Shown: positions 428-19,205 of the stretch, piece by piece
How the letters are laid out: each line of letters opens with the position of its first letter
How positions within the stretch are numbered: the stretch's first letter is position 1
Source: Patescibacteria group bacterium
GTDB taxonomy: Bacteria > Patescibacteriota > Patescibacteriia > UBA9934
Direction: 5' to 3'
Assembly: GCA_038064675.1 (NCBI GenBank)
Contig: JBBTSM010000002.1
Coordinates: 145,852-209,851, forward strand
Length of the DNA stretch: 64,000 bases
Notes under the pieces: model-generated
The model's input: only the letters and a program-made list of their open reading frames with translations
The model's database searches: none
Told to the model about the DNA's origin: nothing
Program-made: the position numbers and the translations under genes

Positions 428-437
428 CAGAGCTTCC

Positions 438-488: not shown

Positions 489-505
489 AACCTCCGCGGA
501 TTCGT

Positions 506-964: not shown

Positions 965-986
965 GGAATGGTATACTTCGTGTTGT

Positions 987-2390: not shown

Positions 2391-2397
2391 TCATTCT

Positions 2398-3294: not shown

Positions 3295-3317
3295 CACAGC
3301 CCTTTCGGGCTGTGTTT
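3295..3317. terminator. Bidirectional intrinsic-terminator hairpin.
   Basis: The hairpin acacagccc-tttc-gggctgtgt is flanked by A-runs on one side and T-runs on the other, and lies between convergent genes. Confidence 0.5.
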
Positions 3318-3338
3318 TTCATCGAATCGATTATAGGA

Positions 3339-3560
3339 CTATGCCTTACACATCTTGCACTTGCCGCAAAACAGCATTGCAATAGCGGAAAGACCAACGA
3401 GCATGTACACCACGTTTTCCAACGATCCTCCTGCTACGGTGCCGAGGAGTGAGTGCACAAGATTCCACTGGAAGAAACCGACGAGTCCCCAGTTCAACGC
3501 TCCAACCCAGACCAACACACCAGCGACCTTGTGTACTGAACATTCGCCTTTGCCCATCAT
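3339..3560 (-). CDS. DUF378-family small membrane protein.
   Basis: The 73-aa product contains 'GALNWGLVGFFQWNLVHSLLG', which is characteristic of DUF378. Confidence 0.65.
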   Translation of the reverse strand: MMGKGECSVHKVAGVLVWVGALNWGLVGFFQWNLVHSLLGTVAGGSLENVVYMLVGLSAIAMLFCGKCKMCKA

Positions 3561-3672
3561 AGGAAAACGATTAATGATTTAATCCTAGTAAAAGCATACA
3601 TGGAAAAAATAGACCGCCCCGGAGGCCTGTGGAAAACTTTGCTTTGCGTGCTGTGCTGTACAATGCCGATAT

Positions 3673-3984
3673 ATGGATTCACTCGGAATGTTCTTCGCAA
3701 AACGATACGGATACGCGCTCTTGTTTGCGTCGCCGATCATTCTTGGAGCGATAGCCATTGGCATGCTCTCGAATATTCTCCAGGTGCGCGGTGCGTTGCA
3801 GGGCGTACAAGACGGCGTTGCCATTGTTGGCATGCTTGTACTGATGTTGGCGCTCGGAGTCGTCATCGTTGTTCGCAAACCACTCCCTGGGATTTTCGGA
3901 CGATGGCAAGGGCTGTTGAGCAAGATTCCAACATGGCGTATGCGTTTGGCAGAGCATGCAGAGGAGCAGCGTGCGCAGCGCTAA
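3673..3984 (+). CDS. Small hydrophobic membrane protein of unknown function.
   Basis: The 103-aa ORF has two predicted transmembrane segments and no recognisable motif. Confidence 0.35.
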   Translation: MDSLGMFFAKRYGYALLFASPIILGAIAIGMLSNILQVRGALQGVQDGVAIVGMLVLMLALGVVIVVRKPLPGIFGRWQGLLSKIPTWRMRLAEHAEEQRAQR

Positions 3985-4970
3985 CGGCTGTTCATGAATG
4001 TGTCGGTAGTTGTCGCGAATGAAGCGATGGTTGATGCAAGTGTTTGAAGATCGTTTCCTTCGGTCATCACGCAGATAAGGTATGGATTTTTCGCGTAAAC
4101 GATGCCGCAGTCGTGATGCTGATACGCCGTTGTTCCATCTGGGTTTGCAAGTGTCACGTCGCCAAATTTGTGTGCAACCGCCTCTGTTGCATCAACCCCG
4201 CTCACGAGCGCATCGCGATAATCGCTCCGTGAGAGCATCTCAAGAATACGCTCAGAGTCCTGCGCGGTAAGGAGCGTGCTGTTATGCAATACACGAAGAA
4301 GACGAGAGTAGAGTCGCGGTGTGATGGTGTAGTGTTCTTCGTCTGAAAAGCTTGGCAGTTCGAGTGCGTTCAGCAGCCCGTTCAGCTCCTCAGCTTTCAT
4401 ATGTTCGATGAGAGTGTGCGACGCAACGTTATCCGAGTACGTAATCATGATGGTGAGGAGCTCTGCAACGGTGTATTGCTTGCCCGACTCGGCGGAAACT
4501 GCTGGTGGAATATTTTGGGGAGATGCTTTATATGATGGATCGACGGTAAGAACTTCATCGAGAATGGTTGGATTGTTTTCTGATTCGTTGATGTACCCGA
4601 TGAGCGTGATAATTTTCATTAGGCTTCCAGGAATATATTCGTCGTCACCGTTCACCGCGGTCCATGTGCCGCCATTCAGATCGCGAACGTAGACTCCCGC
4701 TTTTTGAATGCTGCCAGCGGCAACAGCGCGATCGACGGCGTCTTGTAATAACGATCGGAGACTATCGAGTTCTGACGATGGGATTTGTGAATCCACGCCG
4801 CAGGCAAGAAGTGGTTGTATAAGCGGAAATGCAGGATTATCAATCCGGAGCGCGTGGCCGCGGCTGGCGGTTTCTTGTACAAAAAACGCCCAGGGAACCG
4901 TAAAGCCAATTCCAATGCCGAGGAGAAGGAATCCAACGGCCAGACGAATGGTGCGTTTTGTGGGCGACAT
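3981..4970 (-). CDS. Class A beta-lactamase-like serine hydrolase (membrane-anchored or secreted).
   Basis: An N-terminal hydrophobic anchor, an SxxK motif in 'GSLMKI', an SDN motif in 'YSDNV', and a KTG-like 'HKFGD'. Confidence 0.65.
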   Translation of the reverse strand: MSPTKRTIRLAVGFLLLGIGIGFTVPWAFFVQETASRGHALRIDNPAFPLIQPLLACGVDSQIPSSELDSLRSLLQDAVDRAVAAGSIQKAGVYVRDLNGGTWTAVNGDDEYIPGSLMKIITLIGYINESENNPTILDEVLTVDPSYKASPQNIPPAVSAESGKQYTVAELLTIMITYSDNVASHTLIEHMKAEELNGLLNALELPSFSDEEHYTITPRLYSRLLRVLHNSTLLTAQDSERILEMLSRSDYRDALVSGVDATEAVAHKFGDVTLANPDGTTAYQHHDCGIVYAKNPYLICVMTEGNDLQTLASTIASFATTTDTFMNSR

Positions 4971-5068
4971 GATGCTATTTTTTCACAGTCTCCATCCTTG
5001 TCAAAAAAATCCGGCGTGGTACTATACTCGCGCTCAGGAATTTATGTGAACGTTCATATTTGTGGGTA

Positions 5069-5162
5069 GTTTCGGTGCGCTAGGAGCAAATCTCGCGAGA
5101 CGTACTTCATGGTACGTTGAGCAAGTTTGCGACGCAGCAAACCGAAAATACCCCAAATAGGG
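5069..5162. repeat. Palindromic MITE-like repeat, copy A, immediately upstream of tRNA-Asp.
   Basis: It contains the core 'gagacgtacttcatggtacgttgag' with an ACGTAC-N6-GTACGT dyad. The same core is shared with copies at 29483, 28886, 37332, 43903 and 46436. Confidence 0.6.
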
Positions 5163-5174
5163 ACGTTCACTCCT

Positions 5175-5251
5175 GGGTCGGTAGCTCAACTGGTTAGAGC
5201 GCTGCCCTGTCACGGCAGAGGTTGCGGGTTCGAGTCCCGTCCGTCCCGCCA
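5175..5251 (+). tRNA. tRNA-Asp (anticodon GTC).
   Basis: Manual fold: 7-bp acceptor stem GGGTCGG/CCGTCCC, D-arm GCTC..GAGC, anticodon stem CTGCC/GGCAG with loop CTGTCAC, T-arm GCGGG TTCGAGT CCCGT, and a terminal CCA. Confidence 0.85.
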
Positions 5252-5302
5252 GAAAACGACTTCACCTTGGTGAGGTCGTTTTCTTTTTGGGTTAGCGGAA
5301 TT

Positions 5303-6424
5303 TTATGCCGTCACGAGAGTATTCACCGTCCGATTTTGCTCCCAAGAAATAACAGTGTTGCCCGCCTGTTGCCCGGGAACCTCAATTATCGTTTCGAGAA
5401 CCTGTACCGCATCGTGAAGAGAGGCTGATGTTAGGTGGGCGTATCGCTCCGTCATCGCGATCGTGGAATGACCGAGAAGCTCCTGAATGACTCGGAGAGA
5501 GATGCCCTTTATTGCGAGATGCGAAGCGAACGTGTGGCGCAACAGATGCCAGCCCACTTTCCGATCAATTCCAGCATTCCGACAAAGGCGCTTCAATTCT
5601 CGGGTTGCTCCATCGGTACTCCACGGCTTTTCGCCCAGACCGGGGAACGGGAACATGAGTCCCCTTGGTTTGCGCTCCATATAGAGCGAGTGACGCAAAT
5701 CACCAGCGAGTGGAACATGACGAATTCTGTGACTTTTTGTTGTTGTCATTTCTCGTCGAACCCACGATCGTTGGACAGCGACGGTATTTCCCTCGAAGTC
5801 GATATCACTCCACGAAAGTCCCAGAAGCTCCCCCAGCCGCAACCCCGTCCGAAGAGCGACAAAGATCATTCTATGCAGCAATGCGGGTGCTGGCGCGGCT
5901 AGGAGCCTTACAGCTTCGTGCTCTGAAAGAAAATCCACACGTCGCGAATGCGACTTCATCAGCGCAATACGAGGTATCGAGGAGATTTTCTCCCATTCGA
6001 CCGCTGATCGTAGGCAGCGACCGAGTACTGTTAGCTGATTGTTAATCGACTTGGACGATAGCCCCTCATCGCGCTTACGCGCCTTGTATCGCTCGATGTC
6101 TTCTCCGGCAATGCGATCAATCCGTATCTTTCCAAAGAAAGGCACAAGATGTCGTTGAAGGATTGATGCCTTCATTCTGCGTTCTGAGAGTTTATTGTTT
6201 GCGGCGACATAGGAATCCATCCAGCTAACTGAGAACTCCGAAAAAATCGGAGCGTCCACGGGTTTCTCTAGATGACCATCGCGCGCGAACCTCGCTCGTA
6301 ACATCGCCTCATATGCCGCAGCACCAGCGCGACTATTTTCCGGACTTCTTTTGCGGCAACGGACACACGCTATGCTGAAGTCCACCCACCATGTGTTTCG
6401 CATTTTTCGTACGCTCATACTCAT
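5303..6424 (-). CDS. int: Tyrosine-type site-specific integrase.
   Basis: The C-terminal catalytic region has 'HLLRHTFASHLA' (HxxR) and 'LGHSTIAMTERYAHL' (catalytic Tyr). The ORF is open to 6559, but the likely start is the internal 'MSMSVRKMRN' methionine. Confidence 0.8.
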   Translation of the reverse strand: MSMSVRKMRNTWWVDFSIACVRCRKRSPENSRAGAAAYEAMLRARFARDGHLEKPVDAPIFSEFSVSWMDSYVAANNKLSERRMKASILQRHLVPFFGKIRIDRIAGEDIERYKARKRDEGLSSKSINNQLTVLGRCLRSAVEWEKISSIPRIALMKSHSRRVDFLSEHEAVRLLAAPAPALLHRMIFVALRTGLRLGELLGLSWSDIDFEGNTVAVQRSWVRREMTTTKSHRIRHVPLAGDLRHSLYMERKPRGLMFPFPGLGEKPWSTDGATRELKRLCRNAGIDRKVGWHLLRHTFASHLAIKGISLRVIQELLGHSTIAMTERYAHLTSASLHDAVQVLETIIEVPGQQAGNTVISWEQNRTVNTLVTA

Positions 6425-6629
6425 TCGACTGCGCCACGAGGTGTCTTTCAATATACGTATCAACGTCTGAACGTCGAAAACGAATATAACGAGGGAACCG
6501 ATAGAACGGAATCGACTTTCGTCCGACAATGCGGTACACAGTCTGTTCCGAAATATCAAGGAATTTGGCCAAGCCTTTTACATCGAAGAATTCCTTTTGT
6601 TCAGTTTCTACCTCGTGGCTGCCTGTCAT
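6333..6629 (-). CDS. xis: Excisionase/AlpA-like helix-turn-helix DNA-binding protein.
   Basis: 'DVKGLAKFLDISEQTVYRIVGRKSIPFYRF' is an excisionase-family HTH. The gene lies directly upstream of the integrase on the same strand. Confidence 0.55.
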   Translation of the reverse strand: MTGSHEVETEQKEFFDVKGLAKFLDISEQTVYRIVGRKSIPFYRFPRYIRFRRSDVDTYIERHLVAQSNEYERTKNAKHMVGGLQHSVCPLPQKKSGK

Positions 6630-6713
6630 ATTAATTTTGAATGAGCAACGTTCCGGGCACGATTTTTTGATCGTGTATAGGTTTGCTCATCATAGTTGAT
6701 TTAATAGATATTG

Positions 6714-6917
6714 CTAAGCGGTTCGACTATAAATTTGCACACGTTCCTCGAAGGGTAATTCTGATTTCGGTATAGATGCGTAATAGCCACAGGGTTTTTT
6801 CGCGCCACACTGAAAGTAGACGTATTTCTTTCGTCGAGTGCACCGTAACGGAGATTTTCCACACCAAAGACACGTTTTATTCCAAAGTTCACGAACCGCA
6901 CTAAATTTTCTATTCAT
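6714..6917 (-). CDS. Small Cys-rich (zinc-ribbon-like) hypothetical protein, island cargo.
   Basis: A 67-aa ORF with CLWC...C...FQC...KPC spacing. An ORF in the other frame at 6701-6901 was considered less likely. Confidence 0.25.
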   Translation of the reverse strand: MNRKFSAVRELWNKTCLWCGKSPLRCTRRKKYVYFQCGAKKPCGYYASIPKSELPFEERVQIYSRTA

Positions 6918-7112
6918 ATTCAGATTACCTTCGCTCTCCCTCAGTGCACTGAGGAAGCCGACATTGGGTTGTATTAAGAGTCATGGCCATGGGGTTGAGC
7001 CCGAGCACACTGGCGAATCCAGCTTCAGGCGTGGTAGACATGGTCACGAATATGTAGAACGTATCGTCGAAAAGTTTTAAGTCGTTCCACGGATAGTCTG
7101 GACTTGGTGAAT

Positions 7113-7397
7113 CTAATTGCCGTCGTACATTCGAGCTTTGACGAACTTCATGTGTCGAGAAAATTCCTGCGGTTCAACTCGCATTCGTCGCATCCAAAAA
7201 GATTGGATTGCCGCTTCAAGCTCTTCTGATCGTTGAATGTAAAAAGCTACTCGTCCATCCTGATCTTTTTCCGTTGCCTCGATACAAAAACCGAGAAGCG
7301 AAAGTGATGAAACAAGAATCCAATCACGAGTCACGAAGGATCTATGCCCTGAATCTTCATCGTTATTCATATATGTTTTCTTAATCGAAAAGACCAT
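7113..7397 (-). CDS. Hypothetical protein, island cargo.
   Basis: A 94-aa ORF on the same strand as the integrase, AT-rich. Confidence 0.3.
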   Translation of the reverse strand: MVFSIKKTYMNNDEDSGHRSFVTRDWILVSSLSLLGFCIEATEKDQDGRVAFYIQRSEELEAAIQSFWMRRMRVEPQEFSRHMKFVKARMYDGN

Positions 7398-7488
7398 GCG
7401 CGCAGCATGATCTTTTTTCTAAAAATAGTCGTTCGGATTTAAGCCCCTGACTAAATCCAGCAGACTTTTTATGGATTATCCGATGTTT

Positions 7489-8445
7489 TTAGGCATTAAT
7501 CTCCACTAATCCACAGCTTATTTCTGAAACGATTTGTCGAATTGTTCCTGCATCTATTTTCAGCCCACCATTTTCTGGTCTTGATAGCCAAGTCTGTAAC
7601 TTAACATCAGGATTCTTTCCGGCCGTTTTAAAAACTTGATATTGGTTATAGATTCTTACATTACGCAAGAAGTTTCTATCCGCACTCATTCTTTTGCCCT
7701 CAGGTATTGATCTTCCCGCTTTCAAGCAAAGAGAAATGCTATCCCAATTCTTTTCTATATATCCCAAGAGTTCTTCTTTTTCCGTTGTGTCGTCAAAAAC
7801 AAGCTCACAGACTTTTGGGGCAAGCTCTTTGGGCTCAGTAATCGGAAGTTTAAGCGAAGGAAAAAGCTCGCTTCCCGGTAACTTTATGGGTGTCGCTGCG
7901 AGTATCTCCAAACTTTTCGCAATATCTGCTTTGAGCTCTTCTGGGGTAAAACGAAGGATTTGATTCACTTTCCTACTCGTAACGTCGGTTTTGAAACTAA
8001 TCGTATTTGAAATGTTTGGATAAGCGAATTCCTTGCTCCAGATTTCAAATTCCAGAGAAAAGGATGGGAAGCTCTTTATATCCATCGAATGCTCGAAATA
8101 TAGATGCTCGATAATTTGAGATGCTGTTTTTACAAAGTACTCCTTTTCGTTTTCGGTAACATTTTTGAAATAATTTCCAAGAACCACACGATCCAAATAT
8201 TTTCGAATAACATCGGAAACGTCCTCATCCTTCTCGCATAACGGATAGCTCAAGCCTTTCCTCATCTTTAGATAATGTGCGTCTAAATGAAATAATAGCC
8301 CTTGAAAATCGTTTCTCAGGATAAGAACTTTGAGAGAATGAGCAACACGAAACTCTTTATTTTTAAGGAGAAATTCGTAACATCGACAGCCAAAATCATC
8401 CAACTCTATTTTTGTATTCTCATTCTTCATATTCGCATTATGCAA
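7489..8445 (-). CDS. Hypothetical protein (318 aa), island cargo.
   Basis: A long AT-rich ORF with no recognisable catalytic motif. Confidence 0.45.
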   Translation of the reverse strand: MHNANMKNENTKIELDDFGCRCYEFLLKNKEFRVAHSLKVLILRNDFQGLLFHLDAHYLKMRKGLSYPLCEKDEDVSDVIRKYLDRVVLGNYFKNVTENEKEYFVKTASQIIEHLYFEHSMDIKSFPSFSLEFEIWSKEFAYPNISNTISFKTDVTSRKVNQILRFTPEELKADIAKSLEILAATPIKLPGSELFPSLKLPITEPKELAPKVCELVFDDTTEKEELLGYIEKNWDSISLCLKAGRSIPEGKRMSADRNFLRNVRIYNQYQVFKTAGKNPDVKLQTWLSRPENGGLKIDAGTIRQIVSEISCGLVEINA

Positions 8446-8473
8446 GTATGGTAAGCAATATCACCTACAATGA

Positions 8474-8786
8474 AAATGGTAGAAAAAGGTGGAAATACGA
8501 CGTTTCAAAAATGGTAGCAAATGGTCGCATTTTGGAGAGATGGAGACTAAAAAAGGTGGGAAATGGTGGGATTTTATAAATGGTGGAAAAGGGTGGAAAT
8601 TTGAGGTTTTAAAAATGTTGGAAAAACATGGAAATTCGTGGAATTAAAAGGGTCGAAAAAGGTCGAATCTCGTTAGTGAAGAATTGGCGGAAAAAGGCGG
8701 ATACTCAATAGCTAGAAAATGGCTGGAATGGTCTGGTTTTTGAGTTATGAAAAATGGTAGGCAAAGGTAGGATTTTTATTGGAAAA
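8474..8786. repeat. Array of nine degenerate ~35-bp tandem units. Each unit carries a unit-specific GG-word duplicated across an A-tract.
   Basis: Every unit has the form atGG-W-aaaaa-GG-W-aat...aaaa with a 10-bp internal period. Examples: ggtcgAAAAAggtcgAAT; ggcggAAAAAggcggATA; ggtaggCAAAggtaggATT; ggtggAAAAgggtggAAAT; ggctggAAtggtctggTTT. Confidence 0.7.
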
Positions 8787-8853
8787 TAAGGGAACTCGCC
8801 CGATCGAAGTGTCTGCTAGCCGAAGCCTTTCTTTTTCGCTATACTCCGTCTTG

Positions 8854-8988
8854 TCGAGCTTCAACCCAAAACACGGGCAATTTTTGCCTTATCGGATCGC
8901 GCGCTATAAGCGGCACCGATAAAACAACACAGCACGATCCGTCGTGTTGGGTTGAGGCTCGACACCTTCGGTGTCGCTTTTTGTTTTT
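8854..8988 (+). ncRNA. Candidate structured RNA or leader: a ~21-bp imperfect long-range stem enclosing ~67 nt, immediately followed by an intrinsic terminator.
   Basis: The left arm 'gtcgagcttcaacccaaaacacg' (8854-8875) pairs with 'cgtgttgggttgaggctcgac' (8943-8963). A terminator hairpin gacaccttcggtgtc plus a T-run follows at 8961-8988. Confidence 0.35.
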
Positions 8989-8994
8989 AAAAAT

Positions 8995-9330
8995 ATGGAA
9001 GAGTTCATCGCATATTTCTACGTCGGGATTCCAATAATCGTTATTGTCGTTATCGCTTTTCTACGGACAAAGAAAAAGATGAAAAGGATCAAAACGATCC
9101 AATCGATTCCGGAGAAGGATCGAACAACATCTGAAAGTAAATGGTTAAAATGGATTCGCTTTCTTTTGGAAATTATCATTCCGGCATACATAATCATCGT
9201 TCAAGGCTTTTTTGCCTATTTCGGTTATGGAAGCGGGCATCTACCTTGGTCAATTCTAGCTGTCTTTGTTGGTATAGCCCTTCACTTCGCCATACGAAGC
9301 TTCTTTCGAAATAAATTCGAAAACTCCTAA
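8995..9330 (+). CDS. Small membrane protein (first gene of the four-gene island operon).
   Basis: The ATG at 8995 is chosen because the 8971 start would lie inside the terminator stem. The product has about three transmembrane segments and a basic loop. Confidence 0.45.
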   Translation: MEEFIAYFYVGIPIIVIVVIAFLRTKKKMKRIKTIQSIPEKDRTTSESKWLKWIRFLLEIIIPAYIIIVQGFFAYFGYGSGHLPWSILAVFVGIALHFAIRSFFRNKFENS

Positions 9331-9342
9331 TAGATCGCCCCT

Positions 9343-9780
9343 ATGGAGAATCAAAAGGCGATCAAAGGAATCTCCCAAGAAAATAGGAAACTCATTTCCG
9401 GAACGTTATTCTTGGTTCTTTTTCTTTGGGTTTTTAACGGAATCTACGGAACGCTTATCTCCTTTGGATTATCGGCTGTTTTTTATTGGCTGCTCGATAG
9501 GATTGGAAAAGAATATGAATTCGATTCAGCGACAAACGAAAGGCTGAGAAGGGTCGTCTGGGGCATGATCGCGGGTGCACTTATCGTTGGATCGATACTG
9601 GCATTCAACTCCAAAAACCATACAGAGTGCGATCAACAGGTGCGAACAAGGGACGGTTACGAATGTGTTGGAGATTATGTTGCCGTTAAAGGGGGAGATG
9701 TTGTTGCGGGGGTATTATTAGCTATATTCGGTATTGCAGCCGCAAAAGTCTCGATAACGAAGGCTGACAGCGAGGCGTAA
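9343..9780 (+). CDS. Small membrane protein (second gene of the operon).
   Basis: Predicted to have three to four transmembrane segments, with a 12-nt gap to the upstream gene. Confidence 0.45.
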   Translation: MENQKAIKGISQENRKLISGTLFLVLFLWVFNGIYGTLISFGLSAVFYWLLDRIGKEYEFDSATNERLRRVVWGMIAGALIVGSILAFNSKNHTECDQQVRTRDGYECVGDYVAVKGGDVVAGVLLAIFGIAAAKVSITKADSEA

Positions 9781-9795
9781 CCCAATCTTCGGCCT

Positions 9796-10575
9796 ATGCT
9801 CAGATTTCTTGTTCCTGAACGATTTGAAGGCTTGAACGAGCAGGGTCTGACGAATGACCAAGCTATAGAGGCGCTCGTGCGAAAATATATTCAAGGCTAT
9901 AAACACGAATGTCCCAATACATCCTCGATTGCGGACGAAGATGATCGAAGTGCTACCGAAACTCTTCAAATCGGCGGGAAAATGGACACCCTATACGCAC
10001 TTAGTCGTTTGTATTTTAAACATTTAGATGAATTGGTGGATTCAGAAGCTGCCAGTCGATTAAAATCAGAAATCGCACAAGGCATCGGGGAAGAAAACCT
10101 ATTCCGAGATAAAGAGAGCTCCCCCGAAGAAGACCAGCAGAAAATGATCCGTAATTTACTAGATTACGTAGAATATACGGGGGAGGATGACCGAGTGATA
10201 AGCGTCTTAGCTACTCTAAAAAGAGACGTTTATAGAAAATCTACCAAATACGTCTTGGGCGATTTTGGTGTGCCGAACCCACTCTTGACCGAGGAGGCGG
10301 AGAAAACCGTGTCTGAAGGCTCTACGCGCTTCCTGAACGCGTTTAGAAGTCTGTATCCCGACCAATTTACCGGTAATCTCGAATTAGAAAACGACGGGTT
10401 GTTTTTCGTTGGCGAAATAGTCTCTCGCACACGGGTAATCTCCCAAGGAATGTACCCAGAATATGCTGACAACATTAGTCAAAGTGTTATTTTTGAAATC
10501 CTTCTTTCCCTCGATTCGATTCTTGGATCAAGAACCGCTTGGGATCAGGAATTCTGCGCTTGGATTTGTCATTAA
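9796..10575 (+). CDS. Hypothetical acidic cytoplasmic protein (third gene of the operon).
   Basis: A 259-aa Glu/Asp-rich product with no TM segments. The gap to the next gene is 47 nt. Confidence 0.45.
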   Translation: MLRFLVPERFEGLNEQGLTNDQAIEALVRKYIQGYKHECPNTSSIADEDDRSATETLQIGGKMDTLYALSRLYFKHLDELVDSEAASRLKSEIAQGIGEENLFRDKESSPEEDQQKMIRNLLDYVEYTGEDDRVISVLATLKRDVYRKSTKYVLGDFGVPNPLLTEEAEKTVSEGSTRFLNAFRSLYPDQFTGNLELENDGLFFVGEIVSRTRVISQGMYPEYADNISQSVIFEILLSLDSILGSRTAWDQEFCAWICH

Positions 10576-10622
10576 CTAAGGAGTAATATCAAGTTAACAC
10601 TTTAATAGCTACAATTAACGCT

Positions 10623-12620
10623 ATGGAATCAATTCAGATTAAAGGTAATGGCGTTAAATCGGTGCTTCGCAAGTTCAATAGAGCCCAATCCTTCGCTGAA
10701 TATGTCTGGAACGGTTTTGATGCTGGAGCAAAGAGCGTTAACATCAACTTTAAGACTGACAACATTTTTGATTCAGTTAACGAGATCAGCATATCTGATG
10801 ATGGAAGCGGCATCCCGTACCAGTTGCTAGAGGGCAAATTCAAGCCATTCTTTGAATCTGAAAAGGCGAGATTGAATGATCCGCAACATCGATCGCTGCC
10901 ACACGGAAAGAACGGCATTGGTCGCCTAACCTTCTACACTTTTGCACGCGAAGCTACATGGGAAACGATTTACTCTAAAAACGATAAGAAATTTTCTTAC
11001 ACAATTAAAATCACACAAAAAAGCCTAGAGAATTACGAAGGTAGTCACGACGAACAGAAGGAGGTCGCCACAGAAAAAACAGGAACAACGGTGGTATTTC
11101 GTTCGATTGAAGGGCTTACTCCTAGCATCATTAGAGATGAGATTGTAGATTTTTTAAAAACTGAATTCTGTTGGTTTTTAGAGTCGAAAAAGACCGCTGG
11201 CTTTTCCTTAAAAATTAACGGAGTTGATTTGGATTATGACGATATCGTCAATAACAAGGAGCGCATAGATTTGGTGCATCCTGATTCGGGAACAAAATTC
11301 TCACTAAACTTTATTCAATGGACTCGACATTTATCGAAAGAGTATTCCCGATGGTATCTGATTGATTCAAATGGAATGGAAAAATGGAAAAACGCGACTA
11401 GATTGAATAACAAAGGTGATAACTTTTTTCATAGCGTTTTTGTTTCGAGTAGCTATTTTGATGACTTTATATACGATCCGGATAAGACAGAAGAAGATAA
11501 GACGCTTTTCGGGCATTCAAAGGGTGATCCGGAGTTTAAATACTTGTTGGAGGAATTGAACAGATTCTTGTACAAAAAACGAAAACCGTTTTTAAAAAAT
11601 TCAGCAATCAAACTTATAAAGAATTATGAAACCGAGGGAATTATCCCAAAATTCAAAGAGCCATGGGAATTACCAAGAAAAGATGAGTTAGAGACGCTTA
11701 TCCGTGGACTGTATGAAATACAGCCTCGTCTCTTTTCGAGCTCATCCATAGAGCAAAAGAGGACATTTGTCCTTCTTCTAAATGCACTACTTGACTCAGA
11801 AGATCGAGAGCAGCTTTTAGATATCATTAATAACGTTCTCGAACTGAGTAGAGAAGATAGAACGGAATTAGTTGAGTTATTGAAAGTTACAAAGCTTTCT
11901 GGGATTATTAGCACAATTAAATTAATAAAAGAACGTTATAAAACGATCGATCAAGTTAAGGAGCTAGTCTTTAACCCCACTTTAAAAGCAAATGAAAGAG
12001 ATCATTTGCAGAAAATAATTGATGCACACTATTGGATCTTTGGTGAGAAATACAATCTAGTTTCATCTACAGAAATAAAGTTCCAAAAAGTACTTGAAAG
12101 CTATCTACATTTATTAGGAATCGAAAATAAGGCAGAAGTCATAACACATGTTGATAGGAATAAAGAGATGGATATATTTCTGTGCAGACAAAATATCTCA
12201 GTCGATACAATCGAGAATGTAGTAGTTGAGCTGAAGAGTCCAACCGTACCGCTCGGAGAAAATGAGCTATCACAGGTTAAAAGATACATGAGCGTTATCC
12301 TCAGCGCTGCCCAATTCAACGCAAATAACATGCAGTGGGATTTCATTTTGATTGGAAATAAATTCGATACCAGTGGTTTTATACAAAACGAGATTAAAAA
12401 TGCGGAAAGTCACGGCGAAAAGAGTAAGGGATTAGCATTCAAAACGGATCGTTATCGTATATATGTTCGCACGTGGAGTGAGGTATTAAACGACGTAGGA
12501 ATTCGACACGACTTCTTGCAAAAGAGGCTTGAACTTGATCGAAATAAACTGACTAAAGATTACGTTTCAGCAGATGATGTCGTCATAGACGCCGGAAAGA
12601 ATCTTGAGACGGTTGCGTAA
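10623..12620 (+). CDS. GHKL-family (MORC/MutL-like Bergerat fold) ATPase fused to a C-terminal PD-(D/E)xK nuclease-like domain. Predicted defence effector.
   Basis: N-box 'EYVWNGFDAGAK', G1 box 'ISISDDGSGIP' and G2 box 'HGKNGIGRL' mark the ATPase. The C-terminus 'DIFLCRQNISVDTIENVVVELKSP' fits a D...ExK nuclease motif. Confidence 0.6.
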   Translation: MESIQIKGNGVKSVLRKFNRAQSFAEYVWNGFDAGAKSVNINFKTDNIFDSVNEISISDDGSGIPYQLLEGKFKPFFESEKARLNDPQHRSLPHGKNGIGRLTFYTFAREATWETIYSKNDKKFSYTIKITQKSLENYEGSHDEQKEVATEKTGTTVVFRSIEGLTPSIIRDEIVDFLKTEFCWFLESKKTAGFSLKINGVDLDYDDIVNNKERIDLVHPDSGTKFSLNFIQWTRHLSKEYSRWYLIDSNGMEKWKNATRLNNKGDNFFHSVFVSSSYFDDFIYDPDKTEEDKTLFGHSKGDPEFKYLLEELNRFLYKKRKPFLKNSAIKLIKNYETEGIIPKFKEPWELPRKDELETLIRGLYEIQPRLFSSSSIEQKRTFVLLLNALLDSEDREQLLDIINNVLELSREDRTELVELLKVTKLSGIISTIKLIKERYKTIDQVKELVFNPTLKANERDHLQKIIDAHYWIFGEKYNLVSSTEIKFQKVLESYLHLLGIENKAEVITHVDRNKEMDIFLCRQNISVDTIENVVVELKSPTVPLGENELSQVKRYMSVILSAAQFNANNMQWDFILIGNKFDTSGFIQNEIKNAESHGEKSKGLAFKTDRYRIYVRTWSEVLNDVGIRHDFLQKRLELDRNKLTKDYVSADDVVIDAGKNLETVA

Positions 12621-12819
12621 TCCCTTTTTAGGTTTAAAAAATGTGTCTTTCTTAACAAAACCTACTATTTACTTCTCGATGTCCACAGTTTAAGAGAATG
12701 TCGGTGTATACTATGGGTACCATCAAATGTTGACAAAATGGCTAGATTTGAGACAATATTCCGTTACAAATCGAAAACCCCGATCGACTTGAGAATCAAC
12801 GGGGCTTCGATAATGAGAG

Positions 12820-12981
12820 TTACGCCTGCAAAATGCCCTCAATCTCACGGTTGATGGGCTTTTTGAATATGTGAAGATAGTAATAGATTTCTCCATCAAC
12901 CATCGTCTTCAACACTTTGCCCGGAGGATAATCCTCAAGCTCGGTGTCCCCCCATATTCGAAGAGGGTTCGGTACAATCAT
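12820..12981 (-). CDS. Possible 53-aa small ORF (MIVPNPLRIWGDTELEDYPPGKVLKTMVDGEIYYYLHIFKKPINREIEGILQA), found by manual translation.
   Basis: It falls below the ORF-track length cutoff. A hairpin (ccccgatcgacttgagaatcaacgggg, 12776-12806) lies downstream of its stop. Confidence 0.2.
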   Translation of the reverse strand: MIVPNPLRIWGDTELEDYPPGKVLKTMVDGEIYYYLHIFKKPINREIEGILQA

Positions 12982-13421
12982 AGTGATTCCCGTTATACCC
13001 TCAGGAGCCTGAGTGCGCGCTGGAGCTTATGCGCCCCCTCTGCCAGAGATGGGGGCAAAAGGGAAGCGTAAACAAAACACACGCTCAGGGCGAAACGAGA
13101 AGCTTTCCCTTTCGGGAAGAAAATCCAGTTCCATCCTAGGCGTGCGTGTTTTGAGTACGTAGTCCATTATGGTTGTGGCCTTTCCACTTCATGTTTCGTT
13201 CATATCGATTGCTCGATACGAAGATAGAGTAGCACATTCGCCCGCCAAAATACAGCGATCACCTCCCGGACGGTGTTGCCCGCCCGTTGCCTATAAGGTG
13301 ATGGGATCTGTATTTTTGTGAGTACTCGTGATGGCTAGTGAGAAACGAGAAATTAGCCTAGCTATCGCCAACTTCGTACCTTTTCGGCCATTTTTTCTTT
13401 TTTCCTAATTTTGCGTCATCA

Positions 13422-13446
13422 GGTTCGAGTCCCGTCCGTCCCGCCA
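13422..13446. repeat. attR-like 25-bp direct repeat identical to the tRNA-Asp 3' end.
   Basis: 'ggttcgagtcccgtccgtcccgcca' is identical to 5227-5251. It is followed by the terminator hairpin atccttcagc-tttt-gctgagggat. Confidence 0.7.
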
Positions 13447-13605
13447 AAAAATCCTTCAGCTTTTGCTGAGGGATTTTTTATTATCTTGCCAAGAGCCTGA
13501 GATTAAAACTTTTTTGTTTATTTAAAACGAACATATGGCCATAGAACGACTTGCGCAAAGTCTGCCATCGTCGCAGAATGGCCCCATGGTGAGTACTGAG
13601 AATAT

Positions 13606-14616
13606 ATGAAATACATTGATGTTAAGGAGTTGAAAGAGATCGTGCAAAGTGGGCATATGAACCTACTGGTTGGTTCCGGCTGTTCGCGCGACTATCTCTC
13701 GACATTGAGCGACATTGAAGTTCGCATGAATGCCCCGGAAACCGCCGAGCAAGCGCAAAAGGATTACTGTGAGCTAATATTGAAGTCTAAGGCTGTCCTC
13801 AGCCCGAGCCGGGAGCGCAGTGCAACGGAGAATGGCCGCCTAACTAAGACGAGGGAAAATTACAACGCGTTTCTAGGCCTACTCGCCGAAATTATCACGA
13901 AACGGTCGCTGCATATCGTCAACAAGCAGGTAAATATCTTTACAACAAATTTTGACGTGTTCATGGAAGAAACGTGCGAGCGACTCGGTATTCCTTATAA
14001 TGACGGATTTTCTGGTCAGATCCACCGCGTGTTCCGTACCGCAAATTTTAACAGGATTCAGAAATATAAGAGCTTACAGTTTGACAACACTTCGGACGTA
14101 CCAATTTTTAATATCATCAAGCTTCATGGGTCCACTTCTTGGCGAGTAAGGGGAGAGGAGATCGTCTACTCGGACGGCGCACATATCGACGACGATCTTG
14201 CCGAAAAGGACAGAGAGGATTTTTTGGATGGCTACAAAAAGCAGATCGCGGTCATCAACCCCAACGCCGAGAAACATTTTGAGACAGTACTCGACACGAC
14301 GTACGCGTCGTTGCTTCGAAAGTTCACCCTAGAGTTAGAAAAAGAGAACAGCGTACTTATCGTCATCGGTTTCTCGCTTACCGATGCCCATATTAGGCAT
14401 CTTCTCTACGGGGTCATGCAGTCCAATCCCACCCTCGTGGTTATTTACTACTCGCATTCTCCCTACAACGAAATGAGTGACAAGCTCGATGAAAAGAAAC
14501 ACCAGAACCTCTACGTGATTTCGCCTGAGCCGAGCTTCACCCTCGATAAGATCACCGGGCACCTTAGAAAAGCGTGTCTCGGAGACACGGATCCAGCCTA
14601 TGGAATCGAAGAATAA
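13606..14616 (+). CDS. SIR2-family NAD-dependent protein of the SIR2-HerA anti-phage system.
   Basis: The motifs 'NLLVGSGCS', 'IFTTNFD' and 'IIKLHGSTSW' form a SIR2-like Rossmann signature. The gene overlaps the HerA gene by 17 nt. Confidence 0.75.
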   Translation: MKYIDVKELKEIVQSGHMNLLVGSGCSRDYLSTLSDIEVRMNAPETAEQAQKDYCELILKSKAVLSPSRERSATENGRLTKTRENYNAFLGLLAEIITKRSLHIVNKQVNIFTTNFDVFMEETCERLGIPYNDGFSGQIHRVFRTANFNRIQKYKSLQFDNTSDVPIFNIIKLHGSTSWRVRGEEIVYSDGAHIDDDLAEKDREDFLDGYKKQIAVINPNAEKHFETVLDTTYASLLRKFTLELEKENSVLIVIGFSLTDAHIRHLLYGVMQSNPTLVVIYYSHSPYNEMSDKLDEKKHQNLYVISPEPSFTLDKITGHLRKACLGDTDPAYGIEE

Positions 14617-16486
14617 GTATCCGCTTGACGACCAGATCACGTATGATTCGGTGTTCACCATTGGCAACGTCGAAGGCGTAAAAGGAAAGGAGATCGTCGT
14701 GAGGGTGAAGAAGGATAAGAACCTTCCCCATCTCTTTTTTCATGGGAGAACTATCAAGAACGTGTCGGTCGGTCTTTCCAATTACGTAAAGATCATGAAG
14801 GGCTTTACCGAGATTATCTGCAAGGTCGAGGGAGAATATCTCGAAGAAGATCGGTCGAATGCTCGTAAGCCATACACGAACGAAAGGGCGAAGATCAACA
14901 GGTTCCTTAACGTTTCTGTGTTCGGATTTTACGATCACGATCAGAAGTTCCAGCATGGCATAAAGGAGATGCCTCTCGTTGGGAGCGAATGCAGGCTACT
15001 TTCCAGGGAGGAGTTTGAGACGTTACACCGACTTGCAAATGCTAACGAGCTATCTGTGCGACTCGGATCACTCGTCGATGAGGAAGCACAGTCTATCTCC
15101 ATCTCGGTAAAAAATCTGTTCGCTGGTCATATCGGTATCTTTGGGAACACCGGCTCAGGAAAGTCCAACACACTGGCGAAAATGTACTCGGAGCTCTTTC
15201 ATCTCTCAAAACTAAACGGTGCATTTAAGCGAAAGTCCAAGTTTATTTTTATCGACTTCAATGGGGAGTATTCGAGGGACGGCGCGGATCAAATTTTAAC
15301 TGAAGACAAGGCCGTCTTTCGATTACAAACAAGGGGTGCCTCTGGTTCGAAGTACCCAATATCAAAAGACGAGGTAGAAAAGTTGGAACTGCTCTCAATC
15401 CTGCTGGACGCCACGGAAAAGACGCAGCAACCATTCCTTCAGCGTGCCCTTGAACGATTGTGGTTCGACACTGACAATGATTACTTCGTCAAAGAAGTCG
15501 AAAGTATCACTCGGAAAATCCGAGAAATTTTGCTGAACAAGGAATCTCGCTTCGGCGTCTCATTTCTTAACAAGTTCGTCAAGGATTTCTCACAGCTTGG
15601 CTTTACAATCGTCAATACCTCGAAAAATCTGGACGATATAAAATACCATTCAAATAACCATTCGTTTTATTTTGTTGATGGCACTGACACGACATTATAC
15701 TCGGATAGGGATATCGAAAAATTCTTCGGGGAAGAAGGCTACTTTGACATATCCGCCCCAAGCAACATGGCGGTTCTGCGCAGGATTCAGTTTAAAATTT
15801 TCGACAATTATTACTTCGAGCTAATGAACGGGTACGTCAATGAGGAGCACATCGGTCCTTTAATGGGTCGCGTGAAGAAGCGGTTTAACATGCTGGATAA
15901 AGTCTTCGAAATAGACGGGCACACGGCCGATCACGCGAACATTCACGTCGTCGATTTAAAGAACGTAAATCTCGAGATTAAAAAGGTTATTCCGCTCCTC
16001 ATCTGTAAGACGCGTTATGACGAACAGAAGGAGCGGCGCAATGAGGACCAGGAAAACTCGCTCCATATCATTATCGACGAGGCGCATAATATTTTGTCGG
16101 AAAATTCAACTCGCGAAGCAGAGTCCTGGAAGGATTACCGACTGGAGACGTTCGAAGAAATCATCAAGGAGGGTAGAAAGTTTGGTGTGTTTCTCACTAT
16201 CGCGAGTCAGAGGCCGTCTGATATCTCCCCCACGATTATTTCTCAGTTGCACAATTATTTCATTCACAGGCTCATGAATGAGAATGACCTAAAGGCGATC
16301 AACAGGGCCGTCAGTTACCTAGATAAACTTTCGTTTGATTCGATCTCCAACCTTTCGATTGGCTGTTGCTTCATTGCGGGACAGATGACGCAATTTCCTC
16401 TTTCGATAAAAGTGGAACTTCTTGAACGCATTAGGAGGCCACAGAGCGAGACAGTCAACCTAGATACACTATGGCGAATGGAATAG
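14600..16486 (+). CDS. HerA-like (FtsK/HerA superfamily) ATPase partner of the SIR2 protein.
   Basis: Walker A 'GIFGNTGSGKSNT', Walker B 'LHIIIDEAHNI', and 'FLTIASQRPSDIS' (typical of HerA). Confidence 0.75.
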   Translation: MESKNKYPLDDQITYDSVFTIGNVEGVKGKEIVVRVKKDKNLPHLFFHGRTIKNVSVGLSNYVKIMKGFTEIICKVEGEYLEEDRSNARKPYTNERAKINRFLNVSVFGFYDHDQKFQHGIKEMPLVGSECRLLSREEFETLHRLANANELSVRLGSLVDEEAQSISISVKNLFAGHIGIFGNTGSGKSNTLAKMYSELFHLSKLNGAFKRKSKFIFIDFNGEYSRDGADQILTEDKAVFRLQTRGASGSKYPISKDEVEKLELLSILLDATEKTQQPFLQRALERLWFDTDNDYFVKEVESITRKIREILLNKESRFGVSFLNKFVKDFSQLGFTIVNTSKNLDDIKYHSNNHSFYFVDGTDTTLYSDRDIEKFFGEEGYFDISAPSNMAVLRRIQFKIFDNYYFELMNGYVNEEHIGPLMGRVKKRFNMLDKVFEIDGHTADHANIHVVDLKNVNLEIKKVIPLLICKTRYDEQKERRNEDQENSLHIIIDEAHNILSENSTREAESWKDYRLETFEEIIKEGRKFGVFLTIASQRPSDISPTIISQLHNYFIHRLMNENDLKAINRAVSYLDKLSFDSISNLSIGCCFIAGQMTQFPLSIKVELLERIRRPQSETVNLDTLWRME

Positions 16487-16590
16487 CCTAAATTGATGCC
16501 GAGTTACAAACTCTGCACCGTGTGACGTACCCGACAAGTCAACACTATAAGACAAAGAATATCCGCGTAAAACTATCCTGATAGAACCAT

Positions 16591-16630
16591 AAAATGCATT
16601 CCTACTCGTTCCATCACGTCCCGCCAAAAA
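16591..16630. repeat. 37-40-bp direct repeat (copy 1) ending in an att-like 'cgtcccgcca' followed by a terminator hairpin. It is part of a larger palindrome.
   Basis: 'aaaatgcattcctactcgttccatcacgtcccgccaaaaa' is about 90% identical to the repeat at 17381-17417. It is followed by the hairpin actccgcta-atttt-agcggagga and then by the inverted segment gcggacgggatggtgggaac. Confidence 0.5.
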
Positions 16631-16749
16631 TACTCCGCTAATTTTAGCGGAGGATTTTTATATGCGGACGGGATGGTGGGAACATAATGAAAGAGATCAT
16701 TAGTTATAAGGATGGTGGTTTCGTTTGATACATGAGAAAATATCTTTGT

Positions 16750-17367
16750 ATGCAGACCATCATTTTTGATTTTGACGGCACGATTGCGAATACCTTGGAA
16801 GCAACAGTTGAAGTTTATAATGAACTCGCTCCTCGTTTTCGGTGCAAACCCGTTAGCTCGGATGATCTTGAACATCTTCGAAATGGTCGGCCGAAAGAAT
16901 TGATGGCCGAATTCGGCATTAAAGCATGGAAACTTCCTTTTATTGTTTTCGCTGTCCGTAAAGGACTCGGGGATCGCAAGGTTCTGCCTCAAATTGGAAT
17001 AATTGATACAATTCGGAAACTAAAAAACCAGGGAGCTCTTCTCGGGATTCTTACCTCAAATTCAAAAGAAAATGTCGAGCGTTTCTTAAAGGAACACGAT
17101 CTTCAAAATAGTTTTGCGTTTATCAATTCCTATCGTCGTATTTTCGGTAAACACAAGGCCTTAATAAGCATCATGAAACAACGCGGGTTGAACCAATCTG
17201 AGGTTACTTATGTGGGAGACGAAGTCCGTGATATTGAAGCGGCGGAAAAAGCGGGTGTTAAAAGCGTCGGAGTAGTATGGGGCTTCCAGACACAGGGCGC
17301 CATCAAAGACGCGGATCCGGATGTCGTTGCCATAAAGCCGTTAGATCTTCTTGAACTTACGAAATAG
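16750..17367 (+). CDS. HAD-superfamily hydrolase (phosphoglycolate-phosphatase-like).
   Basis: Motif I 'IIFDFDGTI' is followed by 'LTSNSK' and a C-terminal 'GDEVRDIEAAEKAG'. The start is taken at MQTIIFDFDGT. Confidence 0.7.
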   Translation: MQTIIFDFDGTIANTLEATVEVYNELAPRFRCKPVSSDDLEHLRNGRPKELMAEFGIKAWKLPFIVFAVRKGLGDRKVLPQIGIIDTIRKLKNQGALLGILTSNSKENVERFLKEHDLQNSFAFINSYRRIFGKHKALISIMKQRGLNQSEVTYVGDEVRDIEAAEKAGVKSVGVVWGFQTQGAIKDADPDVVAIKPLDLLELTK

Positions 17368-17380
17368 GCGTTGCGTGCAT

Positions 17381-17417
17381 AAAATGCATTCCTACCCGTT
17401 CCACCACGTCCCGCTAT
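17381..17417. repeat. Direct repeat (copy 2) flanking the HAD cassette.
   Basis: 'aaaatgcattcctacccgttccaccacgtcccgctatgaaaaaa' is followed by the hairpin atctcagc-tcac-gctgaggtt. Confidence 0.5.
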
Positions 17418-17503
17418 GAAAAAATCTCAGCTCACGCTGAGGTTTTTTCTTTTTATTACACTTGGGCTTTAAGATTTTGTGTAAACTACGAGCGAAGTCG
17501 GAG

Positions 17504-17987: not shown

Positions 17988-19205
17988 TTATTCATAACGT
18001 AAGGCCACGATCGGGTTCAGCCCTGCGGCACGTCGTGCCGGGTAGTATCCGAAGACAATACCGATAGCGGCCGAGACGCCGAACGCAAGGAGAACCGACG
18101 ACCATGAGACGCTCGTGCTGACAATTCCCAGTGCTGAGACAACGTAGGAAATGCCAAGACCGAGCGCGATACCAATAATTCCGCCCGCCAGCGTTAACAT
18201 GATGGACTCAGCGAGAAATTGCTGTTCAATTTCTTTGCGTTTGGCGCCGATCGCCTTGCGCAAACCGATTTCTTTCGTGCGTTCCGTGACGCTGGTGAGC
18301 ATCATGTTCATGATGCCGATGCCTCCGACGACAAGGGAGATGCCCGCGACGGCGGCAAGAAGCGTGGTAAACGTTTCCGTGACACTTGATGCTGTAGCGA
18401 TAATGTCGGCTTGGTTGAGAATGCTAAAGTCTGCCGACGCCGCATCAAGGTGATGCCGGCTAAGTAAAAGATTCGTAATTTCCGTTTCCAATTCATCCAC
18501 CGTTTTTTCGCTCGTTGCCTGTACCGAGATACTCGTCACGTACTGGTCGCCGGAAAAGTATCGTTGTGCCGTTGAGAGCGGTATGAAGATCATGTCATCT
18601 TGGCTTGAGAACGAGTTGCCACCCTTCGCGACAGTAGTTCCGACGACGGTAAATTGGCTCCCATTGATACGAATTGTTTGACCAACGGGACTAACACCCT
18701 CTCCGAAGAGATCGGTGCTCACCGTTGATCCAAGTACCGCCACTTTGGCAACAGATGTATTTTGCTGATCAGTAACAAAACTCCCTTCGGCCACCTGCAC
18801 GTTTCGTACCTGCGTGTAGCTAGACGTCGTGCCAACGATAGACGTATTCGTGTTCGTTCCTTTGGCCGCTACCTGATACCGGGAGCTGACTTCCGGCGCA
18901 ACGGCTTGAGCTACCGAAATATCGTTTGCGATCGCTTGAGCATCTTCCGTGGTCAACGACTTCGCCGAACCGCGCTGGGTAGCAACGCCTCCGAATGAAC
19001 GTTGCGATCCCGGCTGGACTTGGATAAGGTTTGCGCCGATGGATTGAATGCTCGACTGAATGGACGCCTGCGATCCTTGTCCGATGGACACCATGGCGAT
19101 CACTGAGCTAATGCCAATAATGATGCCGAGGGTCGTTAAACCCGAGCGCACCTTATTACTGGAAAGCGCAAGAAATGTTTCTTCGAGCAAGTCAGAGATA
19201 ACCAT
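17988..19205 (-). CDS. ABC transporter permease, MacB/FtsX family.
   Basis: The N-terminal 'NKVRSGLTTLGIIIGISSVIAMVSIG', a large periplasmic domain and a C-terminal four-TM bundle. Confidence 0.8.
   Translation of the reverse strand: MVISDLLEETFLALSSNKVRSGLTTLGIIIGISSVIAMVSIGQGSQASIQSSIQSIGANLIQVQPGSQRSFGGVATQRGSAKSLTTEDAQAIANDISVAQAVAPEVSSRYQVAAKGTNTNTSIVGTTSSYTQVRNVQVAEGSFVTDQQNTSVAKVAVLGSTVSTDLFGEGVSPVGQTIRINGSQFTVVGTTVAKGGNSFSSQDDMIFIPLSTAQRYFSGDQYVTSISVQATSEKTVDELETEITNLLLSRHHLDAASADFSILNQADIIATASSVTETFTTLLAAVAGISLVVGGIGIMNMMLTSVTERTKEIGLRKAIGAKRKEIEQQFLAESIMLTLAGGIIGIALGLGISYVVSALGIVSTSVSWSSVLLAFGVSAAIGIVFGYYPARRAAGLNPIVALRYE

Follow-up and report, generated by a model that had tools for sequence, protein, structure and literature searches.

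Integrative elements can accumulate in tandem at a single target gene, and arrays in which they stand beside att-flanked, integrase-less cis-mobilizable elements (CIMEs) are established, for example those related to ICESt1 and ICESt3 in Streptococcus (PMC5704250). In the streamlined genome of Prochlorococcus, tycheposons integrate at tRNA genes, and the part of the source used here describes stacking that pushes older elements inward, together with scattered partial tRNA repeats and degraded elements (10.1101/2020.12.28.424599). Little is known of how accessory and defence genes are acquired by bacteria of the Candidate Phyla Radiation (CPR, Patescibacteria), whose genomes are tiny. Here we analyze the region 3' of the tRNA-Asp gene in a 64,000-nucleotide stretch of Patescibacteria DNA (the window), which matches a contig of a Candidatus Uhrbacteria metagenome-assembled genome from groundwater (GCA_964357295.1); the nearest other species in the genome collection belong to Uhrbacteria as well. 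Three modules follow the tRNA gene in series: an 8.2-kb element with a tyrosine integrase (module 1, 5252-13446; the int element), a cassette with a SIR2-HerA gene pair (module 2, 13447-16626) and a cassette with a HAD hydrolase gene (module 3, 16627-17416). Each of them terminates in the last 9-10 nt of tRNA-Asp, and the two distal cassettes end in a shared site of 38-39 nt, which we call D4.

Based upon comparison with other genomes, we consider it probable that this tandem array arose by successive site-specific insertions at the 3' end of tRNA-Asp, some of them insertions of integrase-less cassettes that are CIME-like or integron-like. The locus offers a concrete route of gene acquisition in these bacteria, with one tRNA gene as the landing pad for two kinds of DNA, a full integrative element and minimal cassettes that share a recognizable end.

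Junctions, D4 sites and their reassortment

An earlier note on this stretch had proposed that the last 25 nt of tRNA-Asp are repeated exactly at the far end of an 8.2-kb element with int/xis at its tRNA-proximal end, that further att-like repeats split the region into three cassettes, and that a GC hairpin and T-run stand behind each repeat. The 25-mer GGTTCGAGTCCCGTCCGTCCCGCCA indeed occurs exactly twice, at the tRNA 3' end and at the distal end of the int element (shuffled sequences gave 0 matches even at 3 mismatches), and a tyrosine integrase gene and an HTH_17 excisionase gene lie next to the tRNA. At all four sites, an A-run, hairpin and T-run follow within 0-7 nt on the 3' side. The three-cassette division also held, and its boundaries recur in relatives, with the amendment that the two distal cassettes carry no integrase; the gene in module 1 is the sole integrase found in the window.

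The two distal repeats, in contrast, are not the degenerate copies of the tRNA end that they had been taken for (16591-16630 and 17381-17417). Instead, they are two copies of a distinct, conserved site, D4, composed of CATAAAATRCATTCCYACCCGTTCCACCA followed by CGTCCCGCCA. The proximal copy (D4a) and the distal copy (D4b) are 95% identical over 37 nt, where chance predicts 0 such matches. With the tRNA, D4 shares only the last 9-10 nt (CGTCCCGCCA; CGTCCCGCTA in the second copy). Its 28-nt arm aligns to the tRNA with a score of 5, which is equalled or beaten by 68% of random genomic 28-mers, and against the 3' 40-mer of the tRNA, D4a scores at background and D4b falls below the reporting threshold. 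We therefore rejected the identification of D4 as a decayed tRNA 3' end. A shortened variant on one metagenomic contig (L021, v3) aligns with the tRNA somewhat better than the other copies do, and D4 might still have a remote origin in a tRNA. A check set beforehand, namely that the repeats resemble the tRNA end beyond chance, thus nearly failed: the terminal 9-10 nt match, but the arm is at chance level. Because this similarity is weak, the case for serial integration rests on comparison with other genomes.

For this comparison we used contigs of other Uhrbacteria and metagenomes (designated by L numbers). D4 was found in six other contig contexts, with matches of up to 37/37: L008, from one metagenome scan; L006 and L007, upon re-reading of fetched loci; and L020, L021 (three variants) and L027/L028, from homologues of the HAD gene. 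The consensus over contexts is CATAAAATRCATTCCYACCCGTTCCACCACGTCCCGCCA. Every D4 site has a gene or operon 3-100 nt upstream of it, and both the cargo in front of it and the terminator behind it differ from context to context. D4b equals the L007 copy at 37/37, though the adjacent beta-lactamase-like proteins are only about 52-56% identical. Cassette ends are far better conserved than the surrounding genes, as would be expected if D4 (about 40 nt) and the terminators or 5' modules (about 50-100 nt) served as homology arms, with imported DNA swapping cargo by homologous recombination and no site-specific recombinase taking part. CPR genomes commonly encode DNA-uptake machinery, which would suit such an exchange.

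The junctions argue otherwise. All 21 that we compared contain GTCCCGCCA, the last 9 nt of tRNA-Asp (GTCCCGCTA in D4b), flanked on the left by one of five arm types (the tRNA body, the int-element arm P1, armX, armY or D4) and on the right by one of the terminator arms T_a, T_b, T_c, T_d, T_e, T_f and T_g. The two sides are combined freely: T_a is preceded by the tRNA (window, L009, L012, L015), by D4 (L008) or by armX (L005); T_d by D4 (window), armX (L006) or armY (L020); and T_b by D4 (window) or by the tRNA itself (L008). Unrelated arms joined at a fixed 9-nt point are a signature of site-specific recombination. As the joined arms share only the 9-10 nt of the core, too short for RecA-type exchange, homologous recombination has no substrate here, and vertical decay does not give such a pattern either. 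Moreover, the 8.2-kb element of the same array has an integrase and an exact 25-nt att duplication. We thus regard exchange by homologous recombination as improbable. The proposal of serial site-specific integration at tRNA-Asp, made in the earlier note, draws support from this reassortment at GTCCCGCCA and from the recurrence of boundaries around different cargo.

Could the D4 pair simply be a local duplication, or a conserved 3' untranslated region or terminator element, with a coincidental 10-nt match to the tRNA? By sequence statistics D4 is unlike the tRNA beyond the last 10 nt, and the window shows no significant enrichment of the 8-mer CGTCCCGC (6 observed versus 3.45 expected). Yet all four plus-strand CGTCCCGC sites lie in the array region, each directly 5' of a terminator, and in L008, L006, L005 and L020 the same terminators follow the true tRNA end or other arms instead of D4. 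In addition, Rfam places only the tRNA above its gathering score in this region, its other matches being at chance level (E about 0.6); D4 as a known RNA was rejected on the same result. Coincidence therefore strikes us as highly improbable.

The HAD cassette allows one unit to be followed from context to context. It consists of core, T_d, inverted box, HAD gene, D4 and core, and homology to its relatives stops at the cores. In L027/L028 the unit is 93% identical over 825 nt and has differing flanks, its left neighbour ending in a D4 variant; in L020 it is 77.5% identical over 841 nt and lies beside prophage-like genes. Outside the unit, nothing on these contigs resembles the window. Judged from these copies, the HAD cassette moves as a unit. 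The reverse arrangement, alternative cargo between the same ends, was among the checks proposed earlier and was found in L006, where a 201-aa open reading frame (ORF) unrelated to HAD stands between T_d plus inverted box (about 50-80 nt) and D4. Since the same cassette ends surround different genes in relatives, the region looks as if it was built by repeated site-specific insertion.

A fossil array would be another way to account for such units: each cassette could once have been a full tRNA-Asp element with its own integrase, of a 'D4-arm' family, from which the integrase was deleted, so that the cassettes are now immobile. Remnants are abundant at the locus (the 3' end of int in L008, a module of about 190 bp in L005 and L006, and a T_a remnant in the window at 26354-26381), and descent of a CIME from a full element is the textbook route (PMC5704250). 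However, we found no integrase-bearing element with a D4 arm, and no integrase debris beside T_c or T_d or inside modules 2 and 3. The HAD cassette keeps precise boundaries in three unrelated contexts at 77-93% identity, and the T_d 5' module and D4 also enclose other cargo (L006), whereas independent deletions would not leave the same minimal unit. Decay as the sole explanation is, in our judgement, unlikely; D4 units recur with many cargos and so look like a cassette family and not like one-off decay products.

Two further contigs extend this picture. L008 comes from a different Uhrbacteria species of the same aquifer (71-77% nucleotide identity in shared genes), and here tRNA-Asp is separated from T_a by a methyltransferase cassette (T_b ... 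D4), with roughly 30-90 nt left of the int 3' end beside T_a. Insertion of a cassette circle at the tRNA end of an int element already in place would be expected to give this order. L021 holds three D4-type sites in series within positions 236-6557 (2759-2797, ~5110-5155 and ~6525-6557), behind DUF6978/DUF1828-1829/DUF4238 genes, behind KTSC and OLD-family (AAA_15/AAA_21/TOPRIM) nuclease genes, and behind HAD and a 183-aa ORF, respectively; no integrase was found on this 10.9-kb contig. It looks like a defence-rich cassette array, and the small D4 cassettes as a whole include the anti-phage genes SIR2-HerA and an OLD-family nuclease.

From these comparisons we infer which enzyme might act on D4, where strands would be exchanged and whether the array could be active at present. 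In the mechanism that we propose, a cassette circle would carry the junction of D4 arm, core and terminator. Acting in trans, a tyrosine recombinase (in the simplest case the tRNA-Asp integrase of module 1) would exchange strands within GTCCCGCCA, with the tRNA end or another D4 site as partner, so that the cassette inserts and older modules are pushed distally. Recombination of D4 with D4, or of D4 with the tRNA, would excise or reshuffle cassettes. The resident integrase is the obvious candidate because it is the sole recombinase in the window, and the chances that it mobilizes D4 cassettes in trans seem to us about evenly balanced. More tentatively, D4 cassettes could represent a previously undescribed, integron-like gene-cassette system of Patescibacteria, anchored on tRNA-Asp and captured, stacked and reshuffled by an integrase in trans, a proposal that we hold to be possible but doubtful.

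Several observations weigh against successive insertion or against mobilization in trans. First, an identity of 9-10 nt is short for a recombination core. Second, no similarity to the tRNA, nor to the P arm of the int element itself, was detected in the D4 arm, so recognition of D4 by the resident integrase is something that we infer. Third, some contigs with D4 cassettes (L006, L007, L020, L021) have no integrase in reach. Fourth, no circular or excised form was seen, and the contigs from the same population (L001, L002, L022) all have the window arrangement. Fifth, SIR2-HerA homologues in two other Patescibacteria contexts lie in islands that contain neither D4 nor the tRNA core, so it is the boundaries of this cassette, and not its genes, that speak for its mobility. 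Finally, the segment at 17.5-26.4 kb, which lies beyond the array, has no att boundary at its right end; thus, not all variability at this locus comes from site-specific accretion.

Composition and extent of the variable region

The features of the region are collected in Table 1.

Table 1. Features of the tRNA-Asp region (window coordinates unless a contig is named) and genes preceding D4 sites.
Feature	Position	Strand	Remarks
tRNA-Asp (GTC)	5175-5251	+	ARAGORN, Rfam; last 25 nt (5227-5251) are the attL core
Junction core GTCCCGCCA			Last 9 nt of tRNA-Asp; invariant
Terminator T_a	5251-5290	+	Proximal (P') arm of int element; integrase stop codon directly after
Tyrosine integrase	5303-6559	-	Called as 333 aa (5303-6304); homologues about 370 aa
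HTH_17 / excisionase-family protein, 98 aa	6333-6629	-	
DUF5659 protein	7113-7397	-	
318-aa protein, function not assigned	7489-8445	-	
Iteron-like array	8472-8764		35-nt period, 10-nt AAAAGGTGG-like sub-period, about 6 copies
AT-rich cargo	8971-12620	+	ORFs of 119, 145 and 259 aa and the GHKL ATPase
GHKL ATPase, 665 aa	10623-12620	+	HATPase_c_3; phrog_6203 at 1.2e-64
Conserved segment near distal end of int element	13258-13304	+	Shared with L014, L009
attR core of int element	13422-13446	+	Exact 25-nt copy of tRNA 3' end
Terminator T_c	13446-13479	+	Proximal end of SIR2-HerA cassette
SIR2	13606-14616	+	PADLOC, 164 bits, 1.4e-48
HerA	14600-16486	+	PADLOC PDLC04097, 581 bits, 6.1e-175
D4a	16588-16626	+	Distal end of SIR2-HerA cassette; 28-29-nt D4 arm and 10-nt core CGTCCCGCCA
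HAD cassette 5' module	16627-16731	+	T_d (hairpin 16633-16652), inverted D4-like box GCGGACGGGATGGTGGGAAC (16664-16683), leader
HAD-IA hydrolase, 211 aa	16732-17367	+	Cargo of 0.8-kb cassette
D4b	17378-17416	+	Distal end of HAD cassette; D4 arm and core CGTCCCGCTA
Terminator T_b	17417-17454	+	39/39 identical to terminator directly 3' of tRNA-Asp in L008
8.9-kb segment	17455-26365		Absent at this locus in L005
Hairpins/terminators after the four sites	5251-5284, 13446-13479, 16633-16652, 17418-17449		
Inverted core or D4-arm copies	16664-16683; L006:192-210, 1038-1049, 3-12; L020:~8017-8036		
Genes before D4			HerA, HAD; SAM methyltransferase (L008, inverted); 201-aa ORF (L006); 178-aa ORF (L007)
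Genes before D4 in L021			DUF4238; OLD-family nuclease; HAD and 183-aa ORF

The integrase of module 1 matches Phage_integrase (1.1e-30) and phrog_1 (7e-63), and its stop codon lies 52 nt from the end of tRNA-Asp. Its relatives are 59-83% identical, and whenever a recovered contig extends as far as the tRNA, they adjoin tRNA-Asp or its 3' end; in L009, L010, L011, L012, L013 and L015, a related integrase stands next to T_a in the same layout. A DUF5659 gene lies upstream of int in most related contigs, at the place corresponding to that in the window and beside an uncharacterized protein of 170-254 aa, and an HTH_17 gene is present in several. The 25-nt repeat is found wherever the distal end of an element lies on the contig, closing a 10.2-kb element in L009 and occurring in L014, where only the distal end is present. 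Directly 5' of the attR core stands the arm GTCATCA, and arm and 25-mer together (window 13415-13446) are matched in L014. The motif GTGTTGCCCGCC from the conserved segment near this end repeats close to attL, at 5355-5366, and may be an arm-type integrase site. With a tyrosine recombinase by the tRNA, a distal repeat, relatives at the same target and an unoccupied site in a relative, module 1 has the sequence features of a genuine, complete integrative element, namely tyrosine integrase and excisionase genes, a conserved core module and att sites at both ends (attL, attR) with 25 nt in common with the tRNA. Scans of viral contigs with D4, with the 25-nt tRNA core or with the integrase yielded no matches or integrases only 27% identical, and no attP-type contig was found among them.

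The AT-rich island cargo pointed out in the earlier note is evident from a GC content of 0.41 in the cargo of the int element, versus 0.52 in the left flank. Its GHKL ATPase gene, which lies 3' of three small uncharacterized ORFs, shows weak matches to BbrUII/HgiDII restriction enzymes (N-terminal) and to HSDR_N_2, and may be restriction-like defence cargo. The iteron-like array lies where the 318-aa gene and the cargo operon diverge, in the intergenic space between them, and may serve as a replication origin or bind a regulator, which would suggest that the int element replicates after excision.

Modules 2 and 3 have core-containing sites on both sides and contain no genes other than SIR2, HerA and HAD, the att-flanked, integrase-less arrangement of CIMEs. 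The SIR2_2 and HerA genes are adjacent with a 17-nt overlap, as in SIR2-HerA systems, a family with anti-phage activity via NAD+ depletion. Their homologues are many, spread across phyla and at most 72% identical, and the proteins themselves are unremarkable. The region had been described as a defence island; this fits SIR2-HerA and plausibly the GHKL ATPase gene, but nothing ties the HAD hydrolase to defence. In the module at the 5' end of the HAD cassette, homology to L006:154-204, L020:7980-8040 and L027:145-226 covers T_d and the inverted box; conservation of the leader was seen with L020. The window and L006 also have a small leader ORF of 13-14 codons here, which L020 lacks, and it was dropped for this reason. 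In the L027 copy of the HAD unit (906-960), the right-hand core reads CGTCCCACCA (G to A), no terminator is present in the sequence that follows, and the gene has a premature stop (182 aa); it may therefore be a decaying copy.

The palindrome noted earlier around the 16.6-kb site is real: it folds as single-stranded DNA at -22.7 to -24 kcal/mol, with z = -5 to -6. Inverted copies of the core or D4 arm stand just past several terminators, namely T_d (GCGGACGGGATGGTGGGAAC), T_f (GGCGGATGGGAA), T_e in L006 (GGCGGGACGG) and, more weakly, T_a. In three T_d contexts an extended imperfect hairpin spans the junction despite different left arms, whereas at D4 junctions followed by T_a or T_b the palindrome is absent. 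The hairpin, which pairs the D4 arm and core with the box past the terminator, may form part of the recombination substrate; alternatively, it may be a scar of inversions or merely an extended terminator. D4 cassettes as terminal-inverted-repeat transposons were considered and rejected, as flanking duplications are inconsistent (TAT/TAT in the window, none in L006) and the inverted box is absent from the T_b and T_c cassettes.

An empty tRNA-Asp site in a related genome had been proposed as a check, and a near-empty one is present in L005, from the closest other species. This contig is collinear with the window on both sides. Its tRNA-Asp lacks an integrase; 3' of it stand about 190 bp of att remnants (T_e, armX with a 21-nt core, T_a), directly joined to the homologue of window position 26378 onwards, with the L20/L35/IF3 genes, tmRNA and SmpB as right flank. 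By this collinearity, the window holds about 21.1 kb of extra sequence (5252 to about 26365), versus 12 kb in the span of the earlier note. The part beyond the array, the 8.9-kb segment, encodes DUF5666, a MacB/ABC/HlyD efflux set, a histidine kinase and response regulator, TspO, three uncharacterized ORFs and a glyoxalase/bleomycin-resistance-family protein, and its GC content of 0.495 is host-like. An exact-protein look-up of MacB (17988-19205) gave no match. At its right end no att core was found; the only trace there is the T_a-type tRNA-Asp terminator remnant (TAAAAGTTTAGGGTTTTTCTTTTGAAAA), which has neither hairpin centre nor att core, and homology to L005 resumes exactly at this point. 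The segment may be an old insertion, or may have been lost in L005.

In L008, L006, L007, L012 and L015, tRNA-Asp and the island are inverted relative to the conserved flanks, so that the 5' side of the tRNA faces the L20/IF3/tmRNA side and not the beta-lactamase-like gene. The locus is thus a hotspot of rearrangement as well as of insertion. Other features of these contigs were also seen. Behind D4 and the int remnant, L008 carries a copper-resistance set (4263-11096: CsoR-type repressor, CopA-like P-type ATPase, HMA-DsbD, DsbA, DUF3105), which is alternative cargo at the same hotspot. A cargo-less module of about 190 bp (T_e, a small hairpin, armX and a 21-nt tRNA core) is common to L005:8488-8673 and L006:1-154 and looks like the two arms of an element with its interior deleted. 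In the window, the tmRNA gene (28484-28882) encodes a long tag peptide, ANAFSKVKSMIASAFSVPSFSLVTA, and adjoins SmpB and the L20/L35/IF3 genes.

Comparison with described systems

Like the ICESt1/ICESt3-CIME arrays, this locus has att-bounded elements lined up at the 3' terminus of a single target gene, and its distal units lack integrase and transfer genes while an integrase-bearing element adjoins them. It differs from them in at least three ways. First, the integrase-less units are very small (0.8-3.2 kb) and hold one gene or one operon. Second, they share a dedicated 28-nt D4 arm that the integrase-bearing element lacks, and have only 9-10 nt in common with the target. Third, the host is a CPR bacterium, and no conjugation module is in sight.

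The likeness to integrons lies in the arrangement: serial cassettes of a single gene or operon, mostly in the same orientation, with a conserved 3' site 3-100 nt past the stop codon. Each ORF is paired with a 3' site at D4a and D4b in the window, at the three sites of L021 and in the one-ORF cassettes of L006 and L007. The L021 array, with no linked integrase, is comparable to the clusters of attC sites lacking integrases (CALINs), and some D4 sites lie within long imperfect palindromes, as integron sites do. The enzyme and the site, however, are different. The integrase scores 68.8 bits against TIGR02249 (cutoff 265) and 43.7 bits against NF011946 (cutoff 435), in both cases over the C-terminal catalytic stretch only. 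On direct reading, D4 has neither the R''/L''/L'/R' architecture of attC nor a GTTRRRY box; D4 and its flanks carry GTT 5' and AAC 3', an arrangement opposite to that of attC, and have no outer stem at T_a and T_b junctions. We thus rejected D4 as attC and the integrase as IntI. Unlike an integron, moreover, the array is anchored on a tRNA gene, whose terminus its sites share. Should D4 cassettes be mobilized in trans, they would constitute a second natural, dedicated cassette-capture system beside integrons, and D4 (CATAAAATRCATTCCYACCCGTTCCACCACGTCCCGCCA) would be a searchable marker for a mobile gene pool that includes defence systems of uncultured bacteria. If they are not, the locus is still a clean, well-bounded case of tandem accretion at a tRNA gene, in a phylum with few described.

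With tycheposons, as presented in the part of the source used here (10.1101/2020.12.28.424599), the likeness is one of behaviour only, the building of an island by successive integrations at a tRNA gene. Their repeats are described there as partial tRNAs, whereas D4 is distinct and shares only the last 9-10 nt of the tRNA, and a conserved cassette-end site is not among the tycheposon features described in that part. As for the SIR2-HerA system, the gene pair is typical, and what is new is its packaging as an att-bounded cassette. In its working the locus is like the stacking of CIMEs and tycheposons; it differs in its minimal cassettes with a dedicated, conserved end, and in this respect it resembles an integron array.

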